A stretch of DNA of 64,000 nt from Candidatus Coprovivens sp. (GCA_051892935.1 JBJFGS010000031.1:1-64000); one strand, 5' to 3'; positions 8,045 to 64,000 are shown, numbered from the stretch's first letter. A program made the numbers and translations. Notes: generated by a model from the letters alone, not told the origin.

Positions 8045-8749
8045 GTGAGGAGTATTTATATGGTAAAAAAGAATGAAGAAAAAATTGAAGATGTAAAGAC
8101 AGAGAAAGTAGAAGTTGAAAATAAAAAAGAAGATGTAAAAGTCGAAAAAAATAATGATAGTGTTAATGGTCAAGCATCTAATGTGATTAGCGTTATTAAA
8201 GAAAAAGCAATTTTAGCATTTAATAAAATAAAAGAAGCATTTAATTATTATAAAAATAATATTATGACTGATAAAAGATTAATTATTGGTACGGTTGCTT
8301 TTGTAGCTGTTATTGTTTTATTAGTAATTTTATTATTCGTTAATCCTTCTAAATCTGTTGCAAAACAATATGCTGATGCTATGGTTGAATATGATGCTAA
8401 AGCAATAGTAAATATTACACATAAGGATGTAATAGATTATTTTGAAGATTTTTATGGTGATGATTATAAAGACTATTTAAAAGATTATTTTGATCAATTA
8501 GAAGATTCAAAATATAAATATAGAGAATATGAATTAAGTGATGATTATAAAAAATATGATAAAGATGATGTTGAAGATTTTGCTGAAGATTGGGATGATT
8601 TATATGGATTAGATGAAAAGTCTGTATCAGCAGTTAGACGTTATACTATAAAGTTCAAAGTTAGCAATGATGGTAAAAGAGATACTATTAAAGTCAAAGT
8701 ATTAGTTGCTAAAATTGATGGCAAATGGTATTTCATGGGTGAAGAATAA
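8045..8749 (+). CDS. Single-TM membrane protein, tandem paralog of 7282..7980
   Basis: Shared motifs DA.KIV..HKD, KY.KD..ED.AE, VAKIDGKWY. Confidence 0.7.
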   Translation: MRSIYMVKKNEEKIEDVKTEKVEVENKKEDVKVEKNNDSVNGQASNVISVIKEKAILAFNKIKEAFNYYKNNIMTDKRLIIGTVAFVAVIVLLVILLFVNPSKSVAKQYADAMVEYDAKAIVNITHKDVIDYFEDFYGDDYKDYLKDYFDQLEDSKYKYREYELSDDYKKYDKDDVEDFAEDWDDLYGLDEKSVSAVRRYTIKFKVSNDGKRDTIKVKVLVAKIDGKWYFMGEE

Positions 8750-53113: not shown

Positions 53114-55243
53114 ATGATATTAATAATAGCTGAAAAACCATCACTAGCTAGAAATATAGTAAGTGCTATTGGTAATATGAAAAGAAATGATGGTTTTTAT
53201 TCTAATAATGAATACGTAGTATCATGGGCTTTTGGTCATCTATTTAGTTTGGCAGATATAGAAGACTATGAAGATAATCCTCCTAAAGAAGTAAGATGGA
53301 AAATGGATAACTTACCATGTTTTCCTAAAAAGTTTAAATTTAATTTAAAGAAAGACTCTAGTAAACAAGTAGATGCTGGAGTAATGAAACAATTTAATAT
53401 AATAAGTACTTTATGTAATAGAGAAGATGTAGTAAAAATCGTTAATGCTGGCGACTCTGATCGAGAAGGAGAAATAATAGTAAGACTATGTATTGAGAAT
53501 GCATTAAAAACTGAAAAAGAAATATATAGATTATGGTTACCAGATCAGACAAGTGAAACTATATCACAAGGTTTAAAAGAAATGAAGTTAGATAGTGAAT
53601 ATGATAATCTAGCTAATGAAGGATTTGCTAGAACATATATAGATTGGCTATATGGTGTTAATTTAACGAGGTATGCAACACTTAAAACAGGTACTTTGTT
53701 AAGGGTAGGTAGAGTAATTATTCCAATAGTAAAAGCAATCTATGATAGAGATATGGCAATAAGAAACTTTGTACCAGAGATGTACTATGGTATGTGGAGT
53801 AATGAAGAAACTAATGGTGAATTAGTTGAATTAAATAGTAAAGAAAAGTTTGATAAAAAAGATCAAAAAAGAGCACAAGAATTGTGCGATAAATATAATA
53901 GTGTAGATGCTATAGTTGTGGATAAAAAAGTAAAAAAAGATACAATGAATCCACCTAAGTTATTTTCTTTAACTAAATTACAAAATTTATTAGGTAAAAA
54001 ATATAAAATACCAATGGATAAGTCTTTAGAAGTAGTACAAAGATTATATGAAAATGGTTATTTAACATATCCAAGAACTAATTCGGAGTATTTAGCAGTA
54101 GCTGAGAAGGATAAAGTTAAAAAGATAATTGATAATATTAGTAAGATAGGGTATCCAGTTAAGTTTAAGGATAAGAAGACAATATTTGATGATAGTAAGA
54201 TTGAGTCACATTCAGCAATAACTCCAACATATAAGATTCCTAGTAAAGAAAGTTTAACTGAAGAGGAGTTCTTAATATATCAGACTGTATTTAAAAGATT
54301 TGTTGCAGTATTCTGTAGTGATGAATGTAAGGTAGAGAAGACTGAGATTAAGATTAGTGTTGGTGAGTATGAGGATTTTGTACTTAAAGGTATGACAATA
54401 GTAGAACCAGGATGGACAAAGTTCGATTCTCCTAGTAGTAAAGATAAGATACTACCTAATTTAAGCATTGGTGATAAAGTTAATACGTTATTTAAGTTAA
54501 AAGAAAAAGAAACTACTCCGCCAAAACATTATACAATAGAAACTTTGAATAATTACTTAATGAATCCTTTTAAGGAAGATAAGAAAGAATTAGATGAAAA
54601 GTACGAAGAGATGAAAGAAGCAGGGGAAGAAGTTGATGATACTGAAGATTATAAAGCAATATTTGAGGGATTAGAACTTGGTACAGAAGCAACAAGAACT
54701 GGTATTATAGATAATGCTAAAAAATCAGAGTACATTGCATTAAAGAAGGATGTTTATACGATATTGCCTGCAGGAGAATTCTTAATAAATTCTTTAATGC
54801 AAATGGAAATATCTATGGATAAATATAAGACAAGTGAGATGGGCAAAGCATTAAAGAAAGTTTATCATGATGAAATAAGTGTTTCTGATTCTGTAGATTT
54901 AGCAAAAAAAGAGATACAAGAAGTATTTACAAAGAAGGAAGTAGCTATAGAAAAAGATACTGATATTGGATTTTATGGTGATGTAGTTGGTAAGTGTCCA
55001 TTGTGTGGTAGTGATGTTATAAAGAATAGATATGCATATGGATGTAGAGACTATCAAAATTGTAAGTTTAAAATAAGTACGCAAATATGTGGTAGATGGA
55101 TATCTAAAAGTAATGTAGAAAAGTTACTAAGTGAGGGGATGACTTCTAATATTGAAGGATTTGTTTCAAAAAATGGTAAGAACTTTAATGCAAGACTTAA
55201 ATTAGATAGTGATAACAAGGTAGTGTTTGATTTTAGTAATTAA
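53114..55243 (+). CDS. topB: Type IA DNA topoisomerase III
   Basis: IAEKPS, AGDSDREGE, TYPRT, GTEATR, C-terminal Zn finger and GF.SK.GK.F.A repeat. Confidence 0.9.
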   Translation: MILIIAEKPSLARNIVSAIGNMKRNDGFYSNNEYVVSWAFGHLFSLADIEDYEDNPPKEVRWKMDNLPCFPKKFKFNLKKDSSKQVDAGVMKQFNIISTLCNREDVVKIVNAGDSDREGEIIVRLCIENALKTEKEIYRLWLPDQTSETISQGLKEMKLDSEYDNLANEGFARTYIDWLYGVNLTRYATLKTGTLLRVGRVIIPIVKAIYDRDMAIRNFVPEMYYGMWSNEETNGELVELNSKEKFDKKDQKRAQELCDKYNSVDAIVVDKKVKKDTMNPPKLFSLTKLQNLLGKKYKIPMDKSLEVVQRLYENGYLTYPRTNSEYLAVAEKDKVKKIIDNISKIGYPVKFKDKKTIFDDSKIESHSAITPTYKIPSKESLTEEEFLIYQTVFKRFVAVFCSDECKVEKTEIKISVGEYEDFVLKGMTIVEPGWTKFDSPSSKDKILPNLSIGDKVNTLFKLKEKETTPPKHYTIETLNNYLMNPFKEDKKELDEKYEEMKEAGEEVDDTEDYKAIFEGLELGTEATRTGIIDNAKKSEYIALKKDVYTILPAGEFLINSLMQMEISMDKYKTSEMGKALKKVYHDEISVSDSVDLAKKEIQEVFTKKEVAIEKDTDIGFYGDVVGKCPLCGSDVIKNRYAYGCRDYQNCKFKISTQICGRWISKSNVEKLLSEGMTSNIEGFVSKNGKNFNARLKLDSDNKVVFDFSN

Positions 55244-55483
55244 GATGACTAAATTTAAATAAATATTTTGGCTAGTTATTTTTGTTTAAAAGAGAAAAGT
55301 TAAACAAAAAAAGTACTAAATTTGATGGTTTAGTACTTTTAAAATGTTTAAAAAACAAGTTTAGTTTAAAGTCTTTTCTTAGATGAAATAGTGTATTAAA
55401 ATATTCTTTCGAGACGACTTAACTTAGATGTTTAAACCTTTAATTTCGAAAGAAAGAAGGTGGTCCTATGAAGGGAAAAATAC

Positions 55484-55549
55484 ATGGAATACTTAGTTAT
55501 TCTAGTAGTACTACTTGTTATTGTAGAAAAGACTTTCAGGGGAGAATAA
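55484..55549 (+). CDS. Putative type I toxin peptide MEYLVILVVLLVIVEKTFRGE (copy 1)
   Basis: 21 aa, single hydrophobic helix + charged tail; GAAGGG RBS; identical second copy. Confidence 0.6.
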   Translation: MEYLVILVVLLVIVEKTFRGE

Positions 55550-55650
55550 AAAAAGAGCAAACGAAAACATCTAATTGGAGTTAGATGTTTTCTCATGTTC
55601 AAATGGACTAAGAAACATCTGACTCTATTAAGACGTCTCTTTTTATATCC
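55548..55650 (-). ncRNA. Putative antisense antitoxin RNA (copy 1)
   Basis: Minus-strand TATAAT at 55657-55662; GAAAACATCTAA/TTAGATGTTTTC hairpin followed by U-rich tail. Confidence 0.5.
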
Positions 55651-55817
55651 ATTTATATTATACTATAAATAATGTAAAATAGTACTAAATATTTTTGTTT
55701 AGTGCTTTTTAAGTACTTAAAATAGAAGTTATAATTTCATATTGAAAAACTATAGATTAGTATAATTAATTTATAAGAAATAAAAAATTGTATGTTAGTA
55801 TGATATAATTTGTATAG

Positions 55818-56993
55818 GTGTTTTTTATGATAAAAGAAATATTTACAGAATTAATTTGTGAAGCCAAAGATGGAAAAGTTTTTATAGATGGTGAGGAATG
55901 GCCGATAGGTTTTAATACTGTTATATCAACTGATGGTCGTGAAGTCGTTTATAGAAATGAAAGGAATTTGTCTGAACTTATTATAAAAGATGAAGAAATC
56001 TTTCTAAAAGTATTAGAAGATTATGTTAATTTGGAGTTGTCTTATAAACGTAAAGTTCCTAGCTTTATTATGAATAAAGAGAGAAATACTATTAAATGGA
56101 TTATGGCTTACTTATTTGTTAATGCCACAACTGAAGATTTTATTAATCCTGTTTCTTATATGAAACGACGAATAGCTTTTTTGAATGATACAACATTTTC
56201 TTATTTAAATGAACCAGTTTCTTTGGAAATAGGGAATCACTTTTTAAATAGTTCTATTAAAATTCAAAATAGTATACATAGTATTGCGATGGAAACTCCT
56301 TATAGAATAGATATTTGTTTGGTAAATTCTATTGATAGTAAGGAAGTTTCTTATCCTTTAGCTACTGTTACTTATGGTATTTGTGAAGATAACGGCGAAA
56401 AAGTTTGTTATGTTTATAGCTTAATGAAACCTAAATCAAAAGTATCTACTGAAGAAGAAGCATATTATGATAAAAAAATAGCTCGTATGTTGTATAAATT
56501 AAATGAAGGTATAGAAAGTTATGAAGTTTCTGAATATTTCGATTATAAAGAAGGAAATTCAAAATATTATCCTGAGGGGAATATTACAGATGTAACTCCA
56601 TCGTTTATTTTATCTTTAAGTGTTTTTTTATCATTGTTGCAAAGAGAAGGTATTCATCATTTAAAAGCTATACCTTATTTGCCTGTTCGTTATTTATCTA
56701 GGGATATTATTGCTAGTGACGTTAAGGAAGAAGATACAAGGTATCAACTTAAACTACGAAATGATAAAATTCAAGAGAATATTACTAATAAGTTTATTAG
56801 AACATTTCGTAGAATAGCTTTTCATACTCCTGATGTAGAAGTTTTATCTGTACCTTATGAATTATCAGAGTATTTAGAATTAAATATAAAGGATAAGGAA
56901 CATATGATTAGTAATCCTATTTTAGAAGATGTTGCTGTAGCTGTTTATCAAATGGATGATAATATAAGAAAAGGATTTCATAAGAATTTTTAA
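55818..56993 (+). CDS. Hypothetical protein between the two TA-like modules
   Basis: 391-aa ORF with TGnTATAAT promoter and RBS. Confidence 0.75.
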   Translation: MFFMIKEIFTELICEAKDGKVFIDGEEWPIGFNTVISTDGREVVYRNERNLSELIIKDEEIFLKVLEDYVNLELSYKRKVPSFIMNKERNTIKWIMAYLFVNATTEDFINPVSYMKRRIAFLNDTTFSYLNEPVSLEIGNHFLNSSIKIQNSIHSIAMETPYRIDICLVNSIDSKEVSYPLATVTYGICEDNGEKVCYVYSLMKPKSKVSTEEEAYYDKKIARMLYKLNEGIESYEVSEYFDYKEGNSKYYPEGNITDVTPSFILSLSVFLSLLQREGIHHLKAIPYLPVRYLSRDIIASDVKEEDTRYQLKLRNDKIQENITNKFIRTFRRIAFHTPDVEVLSVPYELSEYLELNIKDKEHMISNPILEDVAVAVYQMDDNIRKGFHKNF

Positions 56994-57076
56994 AGCGAAA
57001 AAATATGAGGCTTTTCTTCGTTTTTGTTTGTGAATATATTAGTAAATTAATGTTTATAGGTTTTATAGTTCAGATG

Positions 57077-57171
57077 ATTGGTATGATATAATAAAAGTAT
57101 CTAATTATCTTTACATTTTTAGTCTTAAGCCTTTAGTTTTAATTATCTGTGTCAATATTAAGTGATATTAA
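57077..57171. ncRNA. Degenerate tracrRNA-like copy
   Basis: 57114-57171 aligns to the tracr anti-repeat + nexus region 57777-57830; 57077-57097 resembles 57709-57730. Confidence 0.55.
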
Positions 57172-57399
57172 ATAAAAAATAATAATTGTATTTTTTATGA
57201 ATAGATACGTAAAAAATCAAATAAAAAAGTACTAAAAAAAATTATTTAGTACTTTTTAAATTCGTAAAAAACTATTTTAGTTTTTCTGCTTTTCTTTAGT
57301 ATAATAATATATTAAAATAGTGCGTTGAGACGTTTAAATAGGTGTTTTTAAACCTTTATTTTCGAAAGAAAGAAGGTGGTCCTATGAAGGGAAAAATAC

Positions 57400-57465
57400 A
57401 TGGAATACTTAGTTATTCTAGTAGTACTACTTGTTATTGTAGAAAAGACTTTCAGGGGAGAATAA
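57400..57465 (+). CDS. Putative type I toxin peptide (copy 2, identical)
   Basis: Same 21-aa ORF. Confidence 0.6.
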   Translation: MEYLVILVVLLVIVEKTFRGE

Positions 57466-57566
57466 AAAAAGAGCAAACGAAAACATCTAATTGGAGTTAG
57501 ATGTTTTCCGACGTTCAATTGGACCAAGAAACATCTGACTCTATTAAGACGTCTCTTTTTATATCC
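57464..57566 (-). ncRNA. Putative antisense antitoxin RNA (copy 2)
   Basis: Minus-strand TGnTATAAT (57573-57581) and the same terminator hairpin. Confidence 0.5.
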
Positions 57567-57737
57567 ATTTATATTATATCATAATTATATTTGTTTTTGT
57601 TATAGTTTTAAATATTTAATAGTATATGGTTAAAATATATTTATTCTTAATATTAATTTTGTATATTTCTTTTTACCAATAAATACCAATAATGTTATAA
57701 TACAAGTAATTGGTGATGATATGAAAAACGATGACAT

Positions 57738-57835
57738 AAAAAAAGACGGCTAACCGTCCGAAACACATATTGTGAGCATTTAGGCTTAAAGCTTTATTTT
57801 AACTCTCTATGTCATCTTAAATGGTATTAAGACAA
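57738..57835 (-). ncRNA. tracrRNA
   Basis: 25-nt perfect anti-repeat (57806-57830), GTTAAAATAA lower stem/nexus, GACGG/CCGTC-T7 terminator, TTGACT-17-TAGTAT promoter overlapping the cas9 RBS. Confidence 0.92.
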
Positions 57836-57869
57836 CTTAATACTAACAAAAAAATGGAGGTAAGTCAAT

Positions 57870-60800
57870 ATGAATAAAAAATATAATATAGGTCTTGATA
57901 TAGGAACTACATCTGTTGGTTGGGCTGTAGTTGAGTCAGATACACAAAAAATTATAAGAAAAGGAAAAGGAAAAAATCGTAAAGCACTTTGGGGTGTTAG
58001 ACTTTTTGAGGAGGCTTCAACTGCTGAAGGAAGACGAAGCTTCAGAAGTACAAGACGTAGATACGATAGAAGAAGAAATCGAATTAAGTTGTTACAAGAG
58101 GAATTTAAAAATGAAATGAATAATGTAGATCGTGATTTCTTTAAAAAATTAGAAGAATCAAAATATCATGTGACTGATAAGTTTAATAAAACAGTTGTAT
58201 TAACAGCAGAAGAGAAAAAAATGATTCGCGAGTATAATAATCAATACAAAACTATATATCATTTAAGAAGTCGTTTAATTAATGACGATAGTAAAGCTGA
58301 TATTAGATTGGTTTATTTAGCAATTCATCATATTATTAAATATCGAGGAAACTTTTTATATGCTGTTGATAATTTTAATGTTAGTAGTTTAAACATAGAA
58401 GAAAAAATAAGAGAAGTAATGTATTCCTTTGTTAATCTTGTTCCTGCATTAGGAATATCAGATGATTATGAAAATATTGTAAGCATTAATAAAATATCAC
58501 AAATAATGATTAATCCTTCTAAAAATGATGTAAAAGTAGAATTAAGAGAGGTATTAAAAGATTTTTGCAATAGTAATAAATTTGCAACAGAATTTTGTAA
58601 AATGATTGTTGGAAATAAATTTAATTTAAAAGATTTATTTGCTTTAGAAGAAATTAATAAATTACAAATTAGTTTTGATGGTACTGATTATGATGATAAA
58701 TACGAAGAACTAGAAAATATATTAGGAGATAAAATTGAAACTTTAGATTTATTAAAACAATTATATGATACGTTATTCTTGAAAAAACTATTTAAAGGTA
58801 AAACTAATGTAAGTTTATCAGAATTAATGGTAGACAAATATAATCAACATAAAAATGATTTAAGCTTATTAAAGCAATTATTTAGATATGATAGAAAAAA
58901 ATATAACTTAATATTTAGAAGTGTGACTGCAAGAAAAAAAGATAATAACCATACTGAAAGAAAAGAGTATATTTGCTATTATGAACAATATATACACAAT
59001 AAAATTTCTTTTTATGATTTAAGTAAAGAATTAGACAAATATATTCCTGATTTATTAGAATTAGCTGATTTAGAAATTTGTCAAAAATGGAATAGTATTA
59101 AAGAAAGGTATGCAAATGGAGATTTTTTACCAAGAATTACTGATTCAGATAATGGGAAATATCCATATCAATTAAATAAAGATGAGTTAGTTAAAATAAT
59201 TGAAAATCAAGGTAAATATTATCCATTCTTATTAAACGAAGTAAATGATAAGTATAGAATTGTTAAATTACTAGAATTTAAAATTCCTTATTATGTTGGA
59301 CCTTTAGTTTCTGATAAAAAAAGTGATTTTGCTTGGATGGAAAGAATAACACCTAATGTAAAGATTACTCCTTTTAATTTTGATGATGTTGTTGATAAAG
59401 AAACTACTGCCGAGAAATTTATAAAAAGAATGATATCTCATTGTTCTTATTTATTAGATGAGTATGCTTTACCAAATAATTCTATATTGTATTCTAGATA
59501 TAAAGTTATGAATGAATTAAAACAAATTAAAGTTAATGGTAATAAAATTCCTATTGATATTCAACATAAGATATTAAACGATTATTTTATGAAAACATCA
59601 GGTACTATTACAGATAATAAGTTTAAAAGTTATTTAAGAACTTTACCTGATTTTGGTATGTACGAAAATGATATTAATGTTACTGGTTATTCGGCAGATG
59701 GTCAATTTGCTAATAATATGCAATCTTTTGTAGATTTCTTTGGAGAGAATGGAATATTTGAAAGTACTTCGTATAACGAAGAAGATGCTGATCAGATTAT
59801 TGAATGGATTACAATATTCGATGATAAAGATGTATTGGAAAAAAAGGTTAGAAAAGAGTATAACGAGTTGGGTGAATTTAGCATTAAAAAGATAGTAAGT
59901 AAAAAATATTCTGGATGGGGAAGTTTATCTAAAAAATTATTATGTACACCTTATTATAAAGATAGGAAGTCAGGAATTAGTAAATCAATATTGGATTTGA
60001 TGTATGAAACAGAAGATAATTTTATGCAAATAATTAATAATGATGAATACAAATTTCAAGGATTGATAAAAGAAGAAAATGTTATTAAAGATACAACAAA
60101 AATAAATTATGATTTAGTTAAAGGATTGGCAACATCACCTTCTACTAAAAAAGGAATATATCAAGCCTTAAAAGTAGTAGATGAAATTGTTGATTATATG
60201 GGATATGAACCTGAAAATATCATGATTGAAATGTCAAGAAATGAAGATAAAAAAGAACGCAAGGATGATAGAAAAAAATATCTAACTAAGTTATATGATA
60301 AATTTAAAGAAGAAATTAACAATTATTCTCAATTGTCTTTAGAGCTAGATGATTTAGATAAAATTGATACAACTAGATTGTTTTTGTATTTTATTCAAGA
60401 AGGTAAATGTTTGTATACAGGAAAACCATTAAATGTGGATGATTTAAGTAGTTATGAAATAGATCATATAATACCAAGAACGTTAATTAAGGATGATTCT
60501 CTTGATAATAAGGCGTTAGTTTTAAGAGAGTGTAATCAGACAAAAAAAGATAGTTTTGTTCTTCCATCTATGTATAATACATTTGAAAATAGAAAATGGT
60601 GGCAACATTTAAAAAAAATTGGATTAATGTCTGCTAAAAAATTTCACAATTTAATTAGAACTGAATATAGTGATGAGGATATTCAAGATTTTATTAATAG
60701 ACAATTAGTTGAAACGAGACAAATAACAAAGCATGTTGCTAATATTCTAAATAATTTTTATGAAAATACAAAAATTGTATATTTAAAGGCAAATTTATCT

Positions 60801-61943
60801 CATAATTATCGTGAAAGATATGAATTATTTAAATTTAGAGAAATAAATGATTATCATCACGCTCATGATGCTTATTTAGCAGCAGTATTAGGTGAGTATA
60901 AAGAAAAATATATGACTAGAAACGTTAATTATGAAATGATGCGTGAATTAAATTCAAGGATTAAAAGTTCTGGTAATTACAAAAAATTTAATTATGGTTT
61001 TGTAATTAATAGCTTAGATAATGAAATAAATGATTGTATTTATGAATTATCTAAAAATATGATTAATAAAGATACTGGTGAATTATTATTTGATTCTGAT
61101 AAATTCAATAAAATAGTAGAAGATACTTTATACCGAAATGATATTTTAATTAGTAGAAAGACTGAAATTAGGAGCGGAGAGTTCTATAATCAAACTAAAC
61201 AAAAAAAGGGTGGCAAAGGTGTGCCTTTAAAAGGCAATATGCCGATTGAATTATATGGAAGTTATACTAGTTTAAATCCTTCTTATGCTGTAATGGTTAG
61301 TTATACTAAAAAAGGTAAAGAAAATAGAAAAATGGTTGGATATCCTATGTATTTTAATGGAAAAGCTGAAGAAGATAAAATATTATATTATAAAACTCTT
61401 TTAGGTTTAAATGAAAATGATAATGTTGAGATTTATGATAAGAAAATACCTTTTTACTCATTAATAAATTGGAATAATCAGGCGTGTTATTTAGTTGGGG
61501 CATCAGACAATGTAGAAGTATGTAATTCTAAACAGTTTAAATATTCAAAAGAGTTTATGAAAAAAAATAAATATTCTTTTAATGTTTTATTTAATGGAGC
61601 AAAATATGATGATGAAGAAAACTATAGTAAATCTTTAGATGAAATAATTAATTATATTGTTAATAGATTTGAAAAAGATTATGTTTTGTTTAGTAATTTA
61701 GTAGTAGAGTTAAAAAAGATTGTTAGTTATGGTGATTATTCTGTGTTTAATGTTCAGGAAAAAGAGAATATAATTAAACAACTTACCTTATTACTAAATT
61801 GTAGAAGTGATAATGCAAATTTCAAATTTTTAAATGATAAGTATTCAAGTGCGTTTGGTAAGAAAAATGATCGTATAATAGAAAGTTGTTTTGTATCTAA
61901 TTTATCTGTAACAGGGTTAAAGGAAAGTAAGCATGAGTTTTAG
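57870..61943 (+). CDS. cas9: Type II-A CRISPR nuclease Cas9
   Basis: GLDIGTTSVGWA RuvC-I, Arg-rich bridge helix, IPYYVGPL, EIDHIIP HNH, HHAHDAYL. Confidence 0.98.
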   Translation: MNKKYNIGLDIGTTSVGWAVVESDTQKIIRKGKGKNRKALWGVRLFEEASTAEGRRSFRSTRRRYDRRRNRIKLLQEEFKNEMNNVDRDFFKKLEESKYHVTDKFNKTVVLTAEEKKMIREYNNQYKTIYHLRSRLINDDSKADIRLVYLAIHHIIKYRGNFLYAVDNFNVSSLNIEEKIREVMYSFVNLVPALGISDDYENIVSINKISQIMINPSKNDVKVELREVLKDFCNSNKFATEFCKMIVGNKFNLKDLFALEEINKLQISFDGTDYDDKYEELENILGDKIETLDLLKQLYDTLFLKKLFKGKTNVSLSELMVDKYNQHKNDLSLLKQLFRYDRKKYNLIFRSVTARKKDNNHTERKEYICYYEQYIHNKISFYDLSKELDKYIPDLLELADLEICQKWNSIKERYANGDFLPRITDSDNGKYPYQLNKDELVKIIENQGKYYPFLLNEVNDKYRIVKLLEFKIPYYVGPLVSDKKSDFAWMERITPNVKITPFNFDDVVDKETTAEKFIKRMISHCSYLLDEYALPNNSILYSRYKVMNELKQIKVNGNKIPIDIQHKILNDYFMKTSGTITDNKFKSYLRTLPDFGMYENDINVTGYSADGQFANNMQSFVDFFGENGIFESTSYNEEDADQIIEWITIFDDKDVLEKKVRKEYNELGEFSIKKIVSKKYSGWGSLSKKLLCTPYYKDRKSGISKSILDLMYETEDNFMQIINNDEYKFQGLIKEENVIKDTTKINYDLVKGLATSPSTKKGIYQALKVVDEIVDYMGYEPENIMIEMSRNEDKKERKDDRKKYLTKLYDKFKEEINNYSQLSLELDDLDKIDTTRLFLYFIQEGKCLYTGKPLNVDDLSSYEIDHIIPRTLIKDDSLDNKALVLRECNQTKKDSFVLPSMYNTFENRKWWQHLKKIGLMSAKKFHNLIRTEYSDEDIQDFINRQLVETRQITKHVANILNNFYENTKIVYLKANLSHNYRERYELFKFREINDYHHAHDAYLAAVLGEYKEKYMTRNVNYEMMRELNSRIKSSGNYKKFNYGFVINSLDNEINDCIYELSKNMINKDTGELLFDSDKFNKIVEDTLYRNDILISRKTEIRSGEFYNQTKQKKGGKGVPLKGNMPIELYGSYTSLNPSYAVMVSYTKKGKENRKMVGYPMYFNGKAEEDKILYYKTLLGLNENDNVEIYDKKIPFYSLINWNNQACYLVGASDNVEVCNSKQFKYSKEFMKKNKYSFNVLFNGAKYDDEENYSKSLDEIINYIVNRFEKDYVLFSNLVVELKKIVSYGDYSVFNVQEKENIIKQLTLLLNCRSDNANFKFLNDKYSSAFGKKNDRIIESCFVSNLSVTGLKESKHEF

Positions 61944-62805
61944 GACAGTTGTTATTACAAAACAATCAAAAATTAGTTATAAAAATAAATTTTTGGTTGT
62001 AAAACAAGATAACGATGAAAAATATGTTCATCTATCAGAGATAGATACGATAATAGTAGATTCTATATCTGTATCTATTTCTGCCTATCTTTTAAAGGAA
62101 TTATCTGATAATAAAATAAACATTATATTTTGTGATGAGAAACATAATCCTTTTGGAGAATTGTCTTCGTATTATTCCAGGCATAATACTAGTAAAAAGA
62201 TAAAAGAGCAGATAGCATGGAAGCAATCTGATAAAGATAAATTATGGTCAAAGTTAGTAAGAAATAAAATTGTTAATCAAGCTATGTTATTGAGGAAGAT
62301 TAATTCTGAAAAATTTGAATTAGTTTTGAGCTATGCGGATGAAGTTGTTAATGGAGATAAGACAAATCGAGAAGGACATTCAGCTAAAGTTTATTTCAAT
62401 GCTTTATTTGGTATGGATTTTGTTAGAAATGAGTCTGATGATATTAATGCGGCATTGAACTATGGTTATGCTATATTATTATCTACGGTAAATAAAGAAG
62501 TTGTTTCAAATGGTTATTTAACGCAATTAGGTGTTCATCATAAAAATGAATTTAATGAATTTAATTTAACTTGCGATTTGATGGAACCTTTTAGAGTTAT
62601 CATTGATAATTTTGTATATTTTAACCAAGGTAGGAAATTAGATACTAATTATAAATTAGATATTGTTAATATTTTTAATAATACGTATAAGTATCAAGGT
62701 AAAAATTATGTATTGAAAGATATTATAAAAATGTTTGTAAAAAATACTTTGAGCTCAGTAGAAGATTTGGATAGTTATAAGGAATTTGTATATTATGAGG
62801 GATAG
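61933..62805 (+). CDS. cas1: Type II Cas1
   Basis: NREGHSAKVYF, NAALNYGY, DLMEPFR. Confidence 0.97.
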   Translation: MSFRTVVITKQSKISYKNKFLVVKQDNDEKYVHLSEIDTIIVDSISVSISAYLLKELSDNKINIIFCDEKHNPFGELSSYYSRHNTSKKIKEQIAWKQSDKDKLWSKLVRNKIVNQAMLLRKINSEKFELVLSYADEVVNGDKTNREGHSAKVYFNALFGMDFVRNESDDINAALNYGYAILLSTVNKEVVSNGYLTQLGVHHKNEFNEFNLTCDLMEPFRVIIDNFVYFNQGRKLDTNYKLDIVNIFNNTYKYQGKNYVLKDIIKMFVKNTLSSVEDLDSYKEFVYYEG

Positions 62806-63115
62806 AGTTATGAGAACGATAGTATTTTTTGATTTACCAAATATTTATGCAAAAGACAAAAGAAATTATTTGAAATTTAGAAAATATTTAATAAATGAAG
62901 GTTTTATAATGATGCAAGAATCGGTTTATTCAAAAATTGTGTTGAACTCTCAACAATCTGAATTTCTAGTAGATAGATTAAAAAAGAATGCTCCCAAAAA
63001 AGGATTAATTCAAGTTTTAACGATTACGGAAAAACAATATGCTCAAATAGAATATATTATTGGTCAAAGCAATTCAAAAATCGTGGATAGTGAAGATAGG
63101 TTGATTGTACTATGA
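62786..63115 (+). CDS. cas2: Cas2
   Basis: FFDLP, GFIMMQESVY, ITEKQY. Confidence 0.96.
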   Translation: MYIMRDRVMRTIVFFDLPNIYAKDKRNYLKFRKYLINEGFIMMQESVYSKIVLNSQQSEFLVDRLKKNAPKKGLIQVLTITEKQYAQIEYIIGQSNSKIVDSEDRLIVL

Positions 63116-63786
63116 ATGTAATAGTCGAATATTTTGATAATATAATAAATTTAAAATTAGATGGTGTTAATGTTGTGGAAATAGAAAATAAAAAGTATTT
63201 TTATAGATTTGTTAATGATCTTTTTTCTATTTGTAATGATGGCTTTGCTGATGATATTACTTTTTTCGAAGAAGAACTAGAAAAAAATATGAATGGAAAA
63301 CTTAAGGTATTTGTTGATTTTTTTGATTTTCAGTTTGATTCCAAAAAATATATTAATGATGTTAGTAAATATGTTAATGAAAATATTGATGATGAAGATA
63401 AAAATGATTTGTTTAATTTGTATAATAGAATTATCAAAGTTTATAAAAAACTATTGAATAGTGTAGATTTACCATTATCTGTAGAAAGTGAAGTTTCAGT
63501 TGATACAATTACAAAATTAGTTAAAGTTAATATTAACTCTAAAGTAGAGTTGTTGGATAATTTGTTTTTATTGGTTGATTTAGAAAAAGTTTTAAAAACT
63601 AATAATTTATTGATATTTATTAACTTAAAGCAATACTTAACAAGAAATGAACTAGTTGAATTATATAAATATGCCATTTACAATAATATTCAATTATTAT
63701 TAGTAGACTCACAGTCGTATGGTGGTACTTTAGAATATGAAAAAAAGCTTATAATAGATGAAAATCTAGATGAATTTATGATATAA
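63112..63786 (+). CDS. csn2: Csn2 (type II-A)
   Basis: 224 aa after cas2; FINLKQYL, IIDENLDE. Confidence 0.92.
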   Translation: MNVIVEYFDNIINLKLDGVNVVEIENKKYFYRFVNDLFSICNDGFADDITFFEEELEKNMNGKLKVFVDFFDFQFDSKKYINDVSKYVNENIDDEDKNDLFNLYNRIIKVYKKLLNSVDLPLSVESEVSVDTITKLVKVNINSKVELLDNLFLLVDLEKVLKTNNLLIFINLKQYLTRNELVELYKYAIYNNIQLLLVDSQSYGGTLEYEKKLIIDENLDEFMI

Positions 63787-63868: not shown

Positions 63869-64000
63869 GTTTTAGGTCTATGTCATCTTAAATGGTATTA
63901 AAACGTAAAGATAAAATAATTTCTATAACTATATGTTTTAGGTCTATGTCATCTTAAATGGTATTAAAACTGATATAGACTATTCAAAACATACCTTAAA
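63869..64000 (+). CRISPR. Start of CRISPR array: 36-nt repeat GTTTTAGGTCTATGTCATCTTAAATGGTATTAAAAC x2, two 30-nt spacers (continues past window)
   Basis: Repeats at 63869-63904 and 63935-63970; ATTTGAG leader-anchoring sequence. Confidence 0.96.

Follow-up and report, generated by a model that had tools for sequence, protein, structure and literature searches.

Three copies of a candidate type I toxin-antitoxin family beside a Cas9 locus of Candidatus Coprovivens, probably placed there by lineage-specific recombination

The region directly upstream of cas9 in Candidatus Coprovivens sp. raises the question of how small toxin-antitoxin-like elements come to stand inside a clustered regularly interspaced short palindromic repeat (CRISPR)-Cas locus, and whether they serve Cas9 there. 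The window analyzed here is a stretch of 64,000 nucleotides (nt) (GCA_051892935.1 JBJFGS010000031.1:1-64000), which corresponds to positions 1-64000 of contig C31 in a low-G+C draft genome of 1.8 Mb. Two similar modules, each with a short hydrophobic open reading frame (ORF), alternate in it with a degenerate and a real gene for the trans-activating CRISPR RNA (tracrRNA), and a first, sequence-only reading had taken them for addiction modules that guard the Cas9 locus. The evidence set out below favors, with a probability of roughly 0.6, a different reading, in which the modules would be three paralogous copies of a new type I toxin-antitoxin-like family whose placement beside cas9 is lineage-specific and arose through recombination. 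The other element of the first reading, an uncharacterized peptide family of the type I toxin-antitoxin kind, is supported by the coding signature of the ORF, covariation in the RNA helices, the fixed phase of an upstream ORF and a minus-strand terminator.

The genes follow one another as topoisomerase, module 1, a gene for a 391-amino-acid (aa) protein, pseudo-tracr, module 2, tracrRNA (on the minus strand), cas9-cas1-cas2-csn2 and the CRISPR array (Table 1), and every element that the sequence-only reading had listed was recovered in the place and order it had given. Its description of the modules as twins holds for the window, which contains two, and had to be corrected for a third copy beyond the window and past the array (contig position 65840-66074), with the last CRISPR repeat directly before it and an MscS-like gene after it. 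A genome search with the RNA model described below finds exactly these three copies. Modules 1 and 2 form a 300-nt direct repeat, 84% alike overall and near-identical in the core.

The family was delimited with an RNA model, R1, built from the 5' 130 positions of an alignment of 12 sequences; being confined to the module's 5' half, the model may overlook distant relatives. A tally of BLAST hits in 67 of 301 genomes of the bacterial family consisted mostly of short AT-rich matches, and only loci with the motif GGTG..GTCC were kept. R1 was run on 151 genomes of this bacterial family, the window genome included, at about one genome per genus, and gave 23 matches in 18 of them; 20 of the matches fall in 17 genomes other than that of the window. 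When run on a sample of the class, the model hit 2 of the 13 genomes that belong to this family and none of 137 genomes from 25 other families, and a scan for the exact pattern in one genome per species returned 19 loci, 17 of which match R1, the other two being labelled Chloroflexi and Oscillospiraceae. The matches elsewhere comprise 15 intact modules of subtype A, the type of the window, one decayed module (G105b) and four modules of subtype B, in which a peptide of 25-27 aa (MTKRE.SLFIIILLLL...) starts from an ATG by the ribosome-binding site and no upstream ORF is present. Genomes carry one to three copies. Judged by these searches, the family detected by R1 was found only in uncultured, small-genome gut Bacilli of this bacterial family, and according to Pfam, NCBIfam, Rfam and a literature search it is apparently undescribed, with the proviso that supplementary tables (Fozo et al. 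2010, T1TAdb) may list similar ORFs.

Some individual loci deserve mention. Tandem modules about 400-500 nt apart occur in L154 (1055-1678) and L159 (4162-4672), two modules lie 5.4 kb apart on one contig of G118 (L061, at 8021 and 13482), and G149 holds one module of each subtype. The decayed copy (L063, G105 contig 11, ~8060-8181) has kept the RNA frame, the ribosome-binding site and the helices, its hydrophobic ORF being truncated by a deletion. In 5 of 20 related loci (L036, L040, L042, L044, L053), the module has a tRNA gene no more than ~300 nt away, which exceeds the expectation for 1-Mb genomes; none was found within positions 40000-64000 of the window. In G110, domains 1-4 of a group II intron (L041 1-290; Rfam RF02001, 119.5 bits) lie ~1.2 kb from the module.

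The module is a promoter-to-terminator unit of ~235 nt, in which the first base pairs with the last base before the U-tail. In module 1 the first bases, GAGACG..., pair with the last, ...CGTCTC, which are followed by TTTTT; the sequence-only reading gave one 5' arm for both modules, and in module 2 the arm is GGTGTTTTT instead of AGATGTTT. The fold-back itself, likewise proposed there, finds support in fold stability and in relatives. Modules 1 and 2 fold at -67.4 kcal/mol (z = -4.95) and -67.2 kcal/mol (z = -4.93), values that none of 200 shuffles equalled in either case. Across the 12 aligned modules, 88.7% of the cells in the long-range helices are paired, against 79.2% in shuffles, and pairing falls to 30-44% when partner columns are slid. 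Changes on both sides affect 17 of 41 helix pairs (10 of 13 in the terminal helix), a number reached by none of 500 shuffles. In 22 of 23 modules there is a -10 box, with at least five matches out of six, whose end falls 6-10 nt ahead of the first paired base, and all 23 have a T-run right after the helix. Family members have predicted mRNAs of 235-290 nt, with leader and 3' untranslated region (UTR) pairing over 25-35 bp as far as the U-tail. Alternative folds are likely, as covariation also marks a local hairpin that the leader can form and another that the antisense strand can form. In partition-function folds, the mean unpaired probability of the ribosome-binding site is 0.21, and 0.19 with the 3' arm blocked.

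A unit present in several copies and bounded by inverted repeats of 11-25 bp, together with the neighboring tRNA genes in 5 of 20 loci, might bring to mind a non-coding repeat, either a structured small RNA or an element resembling a miniature inverted-repeat transposable element, with ORFs that are incidental. The pairing itself speaks against this, since helix cells hold 23 G.U and 7 A.C combinations, and this strand-specific excess indicates that the pairing belongs to the plus-strand RNA and not to a symmetric inverted repeat in DNA. The promoter and the U-run are, moreover, placed exactly at the helix ends, copy number stays at one to three per genome, none of the 63 viral contigs that contain the 15-mer matches R1, and a BLAST search of plasmids returned no module match. 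The codon pattern described next, a synonymous excess confined to the peptide frame, makes the non-coding alternative very improbable.

The 21-aa hydrophobic ORFs and the out-of-frame 38-aa ORFs behind AGAAGGTGG that had been pointed out in the sequence are present in both modules. A hydrophobic ORF of 17-27 aa is kept in 19 of the 20 matches in other genomes, the remaining one being the decayed copy; where an upstream ORF runs across it, it has 17-25 aa and a charged tail. In 14 subtype-A modules, the second codon position is the most conserved (0.88, against 0.59 and 0.60 for the other two), and synonymous changes make up 38% of differing codons in the peptide frame, compared with 2.9% in the frame of the upstream ORF and 19% in the third frame. 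This signature indicates that the hydrophobic ORF is the coding frame of the module. Its start codon may be ATG, TTG or GTG, and occupies one fixed position. No Pfam or NCBIfam model covers the module peptides (18 of them in the Pfam test); the best hint, from one of the 18, is Ibs_toxin (PF13956; E = 0.13, 12.8 bits against a cut-off of 27).

The upstream ORF behaves differently from the peptide ORF. In module 1, AGAAGGTGGTCC is followed by the ATG that opens the 38-aa frame. Such an upstream ATG is present in 19 of 20 subtype-A modules, the other having CTG in its place, and the distance from it to the peptide start takes the values 13, 16, 19, 22, 28 or 31 nt, which are 1 mod 3 in all 19. 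The upstream ORF varies in length (19-56 aa) and its sequence is not conserved; its phase is. Codons of this frame end on the T of the hydrophobic codons, and the frame therefore remains open across the peptide ORF. The occurrence of six length classes in a single phase argues for translation of the stretch and for the importance of the phase. The likening of this overlapping frame, with its stronger ribosome-binding site, to mok finds support in a phase that is constant in 19 of 19 subtype-A modules.

Signals for a convergent transcript were found on the opposite strand. In module 1 the folded stretch begins 5 bases past the peptide stop codon and its 12-bp hairpin (55563-55592) 13 bases past it, and a terminator scan of the region gave 3 terminator-like sites where 0.4 were expected. 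Across the family, at least five A in the 8 nt before the hairpin occur in 19 of 23 modules and at least five T after it in 0 of 23, an asymmetry by which the hairpin can terminate minus-strand transcripts only. A minus-strand promoter score of at least 10 within 90 nt past the mRNA end was obtained for 9 of the 15 modules with enough sequence, compared with 5.2% of 3000 random windows and, for the plus strand over the same stretch, 1 of 15; subtype B has the best of these promoters, with extended -10 boxes at a fixed distance. All three copies of the window genome have a minus-strand TATAAT ~12 nt past the U-tail (55662-55657 in module 1), and a -35-like hexamer accompanies it in modules 2 and 3 only, the promoter of module 2 reading TTTAAA-17-TATAAT. 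The convergent -10 box and terminator of the sequence-only reading can accordingly be kept in part: terminator-like hairpins stand in both modules, and the promoter is clear in module 2, module 1 having a -10 box without a good -35. Rfam families of type I antitoxins gave no match at E <= 10 in the window region and none at E <= 0.1 in 20 related loci.

Taken together, these features suggest a regulatory scheme. A sigma-70-type promoter would start the toxin mRNA at the first helix base, and an antisense RNA of ~100 nt would start just past the end of this mRNA and stop at the hairpin after the peptide stop codon. By pairing with the whole 3' UTR, the antisense RNA would break the 5'-3' closure and lead to decay or silencing of the mRNA, like the Gram-positive systems with 3' overlap. 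The peptide would be a membrane toxin, and the upstream ORF might act as mok does, coupling to or occluding translation of the peptide.

The same architecture could in principle serve a harmless small membrane protein whose mRNA is tightly controlled by a cis-antisense RNA, with no toxin-antitoxin pair involved. The very short hydrophobic core would suit such a protein, as would the location of modules among housekeeping genes and the lack of a match above threshold to any known toxin family. Against it stands the combination of 5'-3' closure, a sequestered ribosome-binding site (0.21) and a predicted convergent antisense RNA, which is a recognized type I architecture as treated in the relevant sections of PMC8594479. 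The distribution also speaks against it: the family is patchy (18 of 151 genomes), occurs in tandem or multiple copies (L154, L159, G118) and includes a decayed copy (G105b), a pattern that fits selfish or accessory loci. We regard the harmless protein as an unlikely explanation and retain that of a toxin-antitoxin-like family.

Among known systems, hok/mok/sok, from plasmid R1 and with homologues on chromosomes, encodes a Hok of ~50 aa, and Sok binds the 5' leader where mok starts. The module resembles this system in the closure of the toxin mRNA by 5'-3' pairing, in an overlapping out-of-frame ORF at the better ribosome-binding site, which is the position of mok, and in a small hydrophobic product. 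It differs in that the predicted antisense RNA covers the 3' UTR instead of the 5' leader, in that its peptide has 17-25 aa and no sequence or Pfam relation to Hok, and in its Gram-positive-type host. From the Gram-positive families with 3' overlap it is set apart by shorter, unrelated peptides and by the lack of an Rfam antitoxin match, and an SR4-like effect on the ribosome-binding site, as in BsrG/SR4, was not reproduced in silico for the module. To our knowledge, a mok-like upstream ORF in fixed phase is no feature of those families. The invariant +1 phase may mark a mok-like translational gate within a Gram-positive-type system with 3' overlap, a combination not described in the families checked.

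The likenesses to the Gram-positive systems concern the arrangement of the transcripts. The predicted convergent antisense RNA at the 3' end is shared with TxpA/RatA, BsrG/SR4, BsrE/SR5, YonT, Fst/RNAII and SprA1, and an antisense RNA that leaves the ORF uncovered with Fst and SprA1, as these systems are presented in the pertinent part of PMC8594479. With AapA1/IsoA1 of Helicobacter pylori (PMC6733600), the module shares the long-distance 5'-3' closure of the toxin mRNA and a leader able to form alternative local hairpins; IsoA1, in contrast, lies inside the mRNA and overlaps the ORF, in another phylum and with no sequence relation. The Ibs toxins (18-19 aa) are similarly short and hydrophobic, but the PF13956 match stays under the gathering score (12.8 against 27 bits, in 1 of 18 peptides), and Sib RNA spans the whole ORF in the account of PMC8594479, whereas the predicted antisense RNA of the module stops at the stop codon.

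Whether the modules are tied to Cas9 was addressed by their neighborhoods in other genomes. A check of ~8 kb around each module, or to the contig end, recovered the array of the window genome as a positive control and found no array, cas9, cas1, cas2 or csn2 at any of 19 module loci in the 17 other genomes. Fifteen further module loci yielded one with cas9, the orthologous locus of a close relative (G438). In total, 33 of the 34 module loci outside the window genome adjoin ordinary genes, with housekeeping functions such as miaA, dxs, guanylate kinase and pseudouridine synthase. Cas9 is encoded in 19 of the 151 genomes, and the five of these that also carry a module have it on a different contig in every case. 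The search for homologs scored by cas9 adjacency that the sequence-only reading had proposed thus confirmed conservation of the ORF and returned cas9 adjacency at just 1 of 34 loci. Complementarity to the CRISPR RNAs was no more than expected by chance: the longest matches of spacers to modules are 10-11 nt, compared with 13-16 nt for shuffled spacers; matches of the CRISPR repeat are 8-9 nt and do not go beyond those of shuffles; and duplex energies of tracr and pseudo-tracr with the modules lie within those of shuffles, the best (tracr with module 1 mRNA) being reached by 2 of 40.

These results bear on the alternative that the modules are addiction modules stabilizing the CRISPR-Cas9 island and the 391-aa gene, perhaps with CreTA-like coupling to Cas9 RNAs. 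The island is variable: G144, of the same genus, lacks it, the homologue of contig position 73296 lying ~600 nt beyond its topoisomerase gene, and ~18 kb are hence variable here (from 55244 to position 73295 of contig C31), comprising the CRISPR-Cas locus, the modules and a number of other genes. All three copies fall within a CRISPR-Cas region of 10.7 kb, and in G438, whose Cas9 is just 71% identical, a module still immediately precedes tracr-cas9. The order in G438 is topoisomerase, hairpin, one module, tracr, cas9...array, two other genes and mscS; the topoisomerase is 94% identical, Cas1 90% and Csn2 72%, and the CRISPR repeat is the same; the locus has neither a pseudo-tracr nor the 391-aa gene, and a module is absent past the array. 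This locus (L163; contig 4, 45422-53180) has genes and G+C of the Bacilli group, though the contig is labelled Muribaculaceae. There is also precedent in Clostridioides difficile, where type I toxin-antitoxin loci are documented beside CRISPR arrays (PMC5961336).

The precedents are nevertheless distinct. The C. difficile toxins have 50-53 aa with tails rich in lysine, and in most strains they go with type I-B arrays, as reported in the part of PMC5961336 devoted to them. The convergent overlapping transcripts, small membrane toxin and position directly beside the array of those loci (PMC5961336) recur in module 3, for which RNA and toxin are predicted, whereas the present module adjoins a type II-A locus, in just two related genomes and at 1 of 34 loci elsewhere. 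CreA is a repeat-flanked guide that requires a Cas effector and matches the toxin promoter, according to the description available in PMC10120712; the likeness to CreTA lies in a toxin-antitoxin cargo within a CRISPR-Cas locus and a solitary repeat-like element, here the pseudo-tracr, and the difference in a predicted antitoxin that is an ordinary cis-antisense RNA, not repeat-like, with no complementarity of the CreA kind found. Neither a guard of the Cas9 locus nor a wiring to Cas9 RNAs is therefore supported, as 33 of 34 other loci lie beside ordinary genes, the sole cas9 case is orthologous, module and Cas9 are on separate contigs in the five genomes that have both, and spacer, repeat, tracr and pseudo-tracr complementarity remains within shuffled controls. 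Direct repeats would, in addition, allow deletion of the locus with one intact module left behind, so that its loss would go unpunished. Addiction modules dedicated to the island appear quite unlikely to us.

The preferred reading, of paralogous copies brought to their places by recombination, draws on comparison of the three copies with one another. A core of 97 nt is common to all of them with 0-1 differences. In the upstream stretch and leader, module 2 shows 0 of 185 differences to module 3 and 62 of 185 to module 1; in the 3' UTR, it shows 5 of 95 to module 1 and 17 of 95 to module 3. A mosaic of this kind is the pattern expected from unequal crossover between a module after the array and a module before tracr. 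The flanks common to the copies and their mosaic pattern are typical of local recombination and indicate that the three are not independent. As far as the genomes compared can tell, the position around Cas9 is a local, lineage-specific arrangement.

The array has 28 identical repeats of 36 nt and 27 spacers of 30 nt, and the predicted tracrRNA shows the anti-repeat, nexus and terminator and the position beside cas9 expected of type II-A, with a score for Rfam RF02348 of 25.3 bits, under the gathering score of 70. The degenerate tracr noted from the sequence proved real, its alignment to the tracr locus scoring 49, compared with 16.5 +/- 2.5 for shuffles and 30 for its alignment to the last CRISPR repeat. 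Unequal crossing-over of the post-array with the pre-tracr module most likely duplicated the tracr-cas-array unit and created the mosaic module 2. Next, a deletion from the tracr anti-repeat to the terminal CRISPR repeat would have collapsed the left copy, with the pseudo-tracr as its residue; such a deletion explains the junction of the pseudo-tracr with the stretch that follows it, which recurs after the last repeat (stretch X, Table 1). The 391-aa gene, which stands between 15-nt direct repeats at 55795 and 57078, would have come to lie in the remnant of the left copy. We infer this history of duplication and collapse from the pattern of identities. The module, in sum, looks like a free-standing toxin-antitoxin element whose copies serve as recombination handles, and not like a dedicated Cas9 guard.

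Several observations weigh against this interpretation. The adjacency of module, tracr and cas9 outlasted the split of two species, and all three copies of the window genome sit inside the CRISPR-Cas locus, which leaves room for a stabilizing role. The stretches from module 1 to pseudo-tracr and from module 2 to tracr have no significant similarity beyond 27 nt. The antisense promoters of the window genome are weak, that of module 1 scoring 8 and the copies sharing just the -10 box, and the unchanged accessibility of the ribosome-binding site leaves the proposed antisense effect without computational support. Finally, a hydrophobic core of ~12-13 residues is short for a membrane span. A more speculative proposal, to which we assign low odds, is that the module has been recruited to the Cas9 island, its copies penalizing loss of the flanks post-segregationally and, as direct repeats, driving duplication, collapse and possibly on/off excision; as a separate part of that proposal, the fixed +1 phase may be a mok-like gate. 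Such a recruitment, if true, would be the first partnership of a toxin-antitoxin system of type I with a type II-A locus.

Other features of the locus were recorded alongside the modules. The 391-aa protein has no Pfam hit, no PADLOC hit and no counterpart in the ESM Atlas. Its 246 homologues, all unnamed or "hypothetical", come from Bacilli metagenome bins, and the gene occurs in 36 of the 151 family genomes. In a structural model with a predicted local distance difference test score (pLDDT) of 89, residues ~125-375 resemble acetyl-CoA-binding domains of the GNAT fold; the best structural match is the acetyl-CoA-binding C-terminal domain of Mycobacterium tuberculosis ICL2 (Z = 9.3, root-mean-square deviation 4.1 A over 150 residues), GCN5, RimI and AtaT-type proteins score Z 6-7, and Foldseek against the PDB gave weak matches alone (E >= 0.008). 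An association of this gene with CRISPR was considered and rejected: the homologue in G098 is ~3.4 kb upstream of cas9, but metK and typA intervene, and the homologue in G438 is 28 kb from the locus.

Hairpins of the form A-run/GTACTAAA...TTTAGTAC/T-run, which resemble two-way terminators, bracket the modules in three copies (55308-55340, 55677-55710 and 57224-57257), and similar hairpins in G438 sit after the topoisomerase gene and after the array. Upstream of the tracr gene, a good plus-strand promoter (57672-57701; TTTACC-18-TATAAT with TG) is directed through that gene toward cas9; a transcript from it would be antisense to the tracrRNA. DNA contigs from other samples reproduce the gene order in one run (X2), where they break at module 2. 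A contig of X5 joins 55320 to 57245 and passes over everything from module 1 through the 391-aa gene to the pseudo-tracr; with a likeness of 85%, it may stem from a G438-like relative and was not counted as strain polymorphism.

Table 1. Positions of the modules and surrounding features, counted from the first base of the window
Feature	Position	Strand	Remark
Topoisomerase gene	53114-55243		Pfam Topoisom_bac and Toprim
-10 box TAAAAT of module 1 toxin mRNA	55397..55402	+	8 nt before first helix base
Module 1 toxin mRNA (predicted)	55411..55644	+	5' end pairs with 3' end, then U-run
Shine-Dalgarno AGAAGGTGG, module 1	55455..55463	+	Family keeps motif GGTGGTCC
Upstream overlapping ORF, 38 aa, module 1	55468..55584	+	16 nt before peptide start, +1 phase
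Putative toxin ORF, 21 aa, MEYLVILVVLLVIVEKTFRGE, module 1	55484..55549	+	Coding signature in relatives
Predicted antisense RNA, module 1, ~100 nt	55548..55652	-	Complementary to mRNA 3' UTR; inferred ends
Minus-strand intrinsic terminator hairpin, module 1	55563..55592	-	U-run is complement of 55548-55554
391-aa gene	55818..56993	+	C-terminal half with GNAT-like fold (model)
Pseudo-tracr	57118..57171	-	Nexus-like part and anti-repeat kept; without terminator; ~78% identical to real tracr
Stretch X: hairpin 57224-57257 and module promoter	57184..57326	+	Identical (0 differences) to stretch after last CRISPR repeat
Module 2 toxin mRNA (predicted), mosaic	57327..57560	+	Leader identical to module 3; 3' UTR closest to module 1
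Upstream overlapping ORF, 38 aa, module 2	57384..57500	+	ATG beside ribosome-binding site
Putative toxin ORF, 21 aa, MEYLVILVVLLVIVEKTFRGE, module 2	57400..57465	+	Same peptide as module 1
Predicted antisense RNA, module 2	57464..57568	-	Terminator hairpin 57508-57479; promoter 57612-57584; inferred ends
tracrRNA gene: anti-repeat, nexus, terminator (57759-57744)	57737..57835	-	Anti-repeat matches array repeat
cas9 (57870-61943), cas1, cas2, csn2: type II-A operon	57870..63786	+	Orthologues in G438
CRISPR array, start in window	63870..64000	+	Array reaches contig position 65687

For the uncultured gut Bacilli with small genomes, in which no such locus is annotated, the modules provide a well-supported candidate type I toxin-antitoxin family. 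It unites traits that usually occur apart, those of Gram-negative systems, namely 5'-3' closure and a mok-like frame, with a Gram-positive one, the predicted convergent 3' antisense RNA, and the fixed phase of its upstream ORF offers a testable handle on the silencing of such peptides. With its recombinant module and its junction of tracr and terminal repeat, which looks like the scar of a collapsed CRISPR-Cas copy, the locus is a natural example of small repeats remodelling a Cas9 locus, and it cautions that adjacency to cas genes should not be read as functional coupling.

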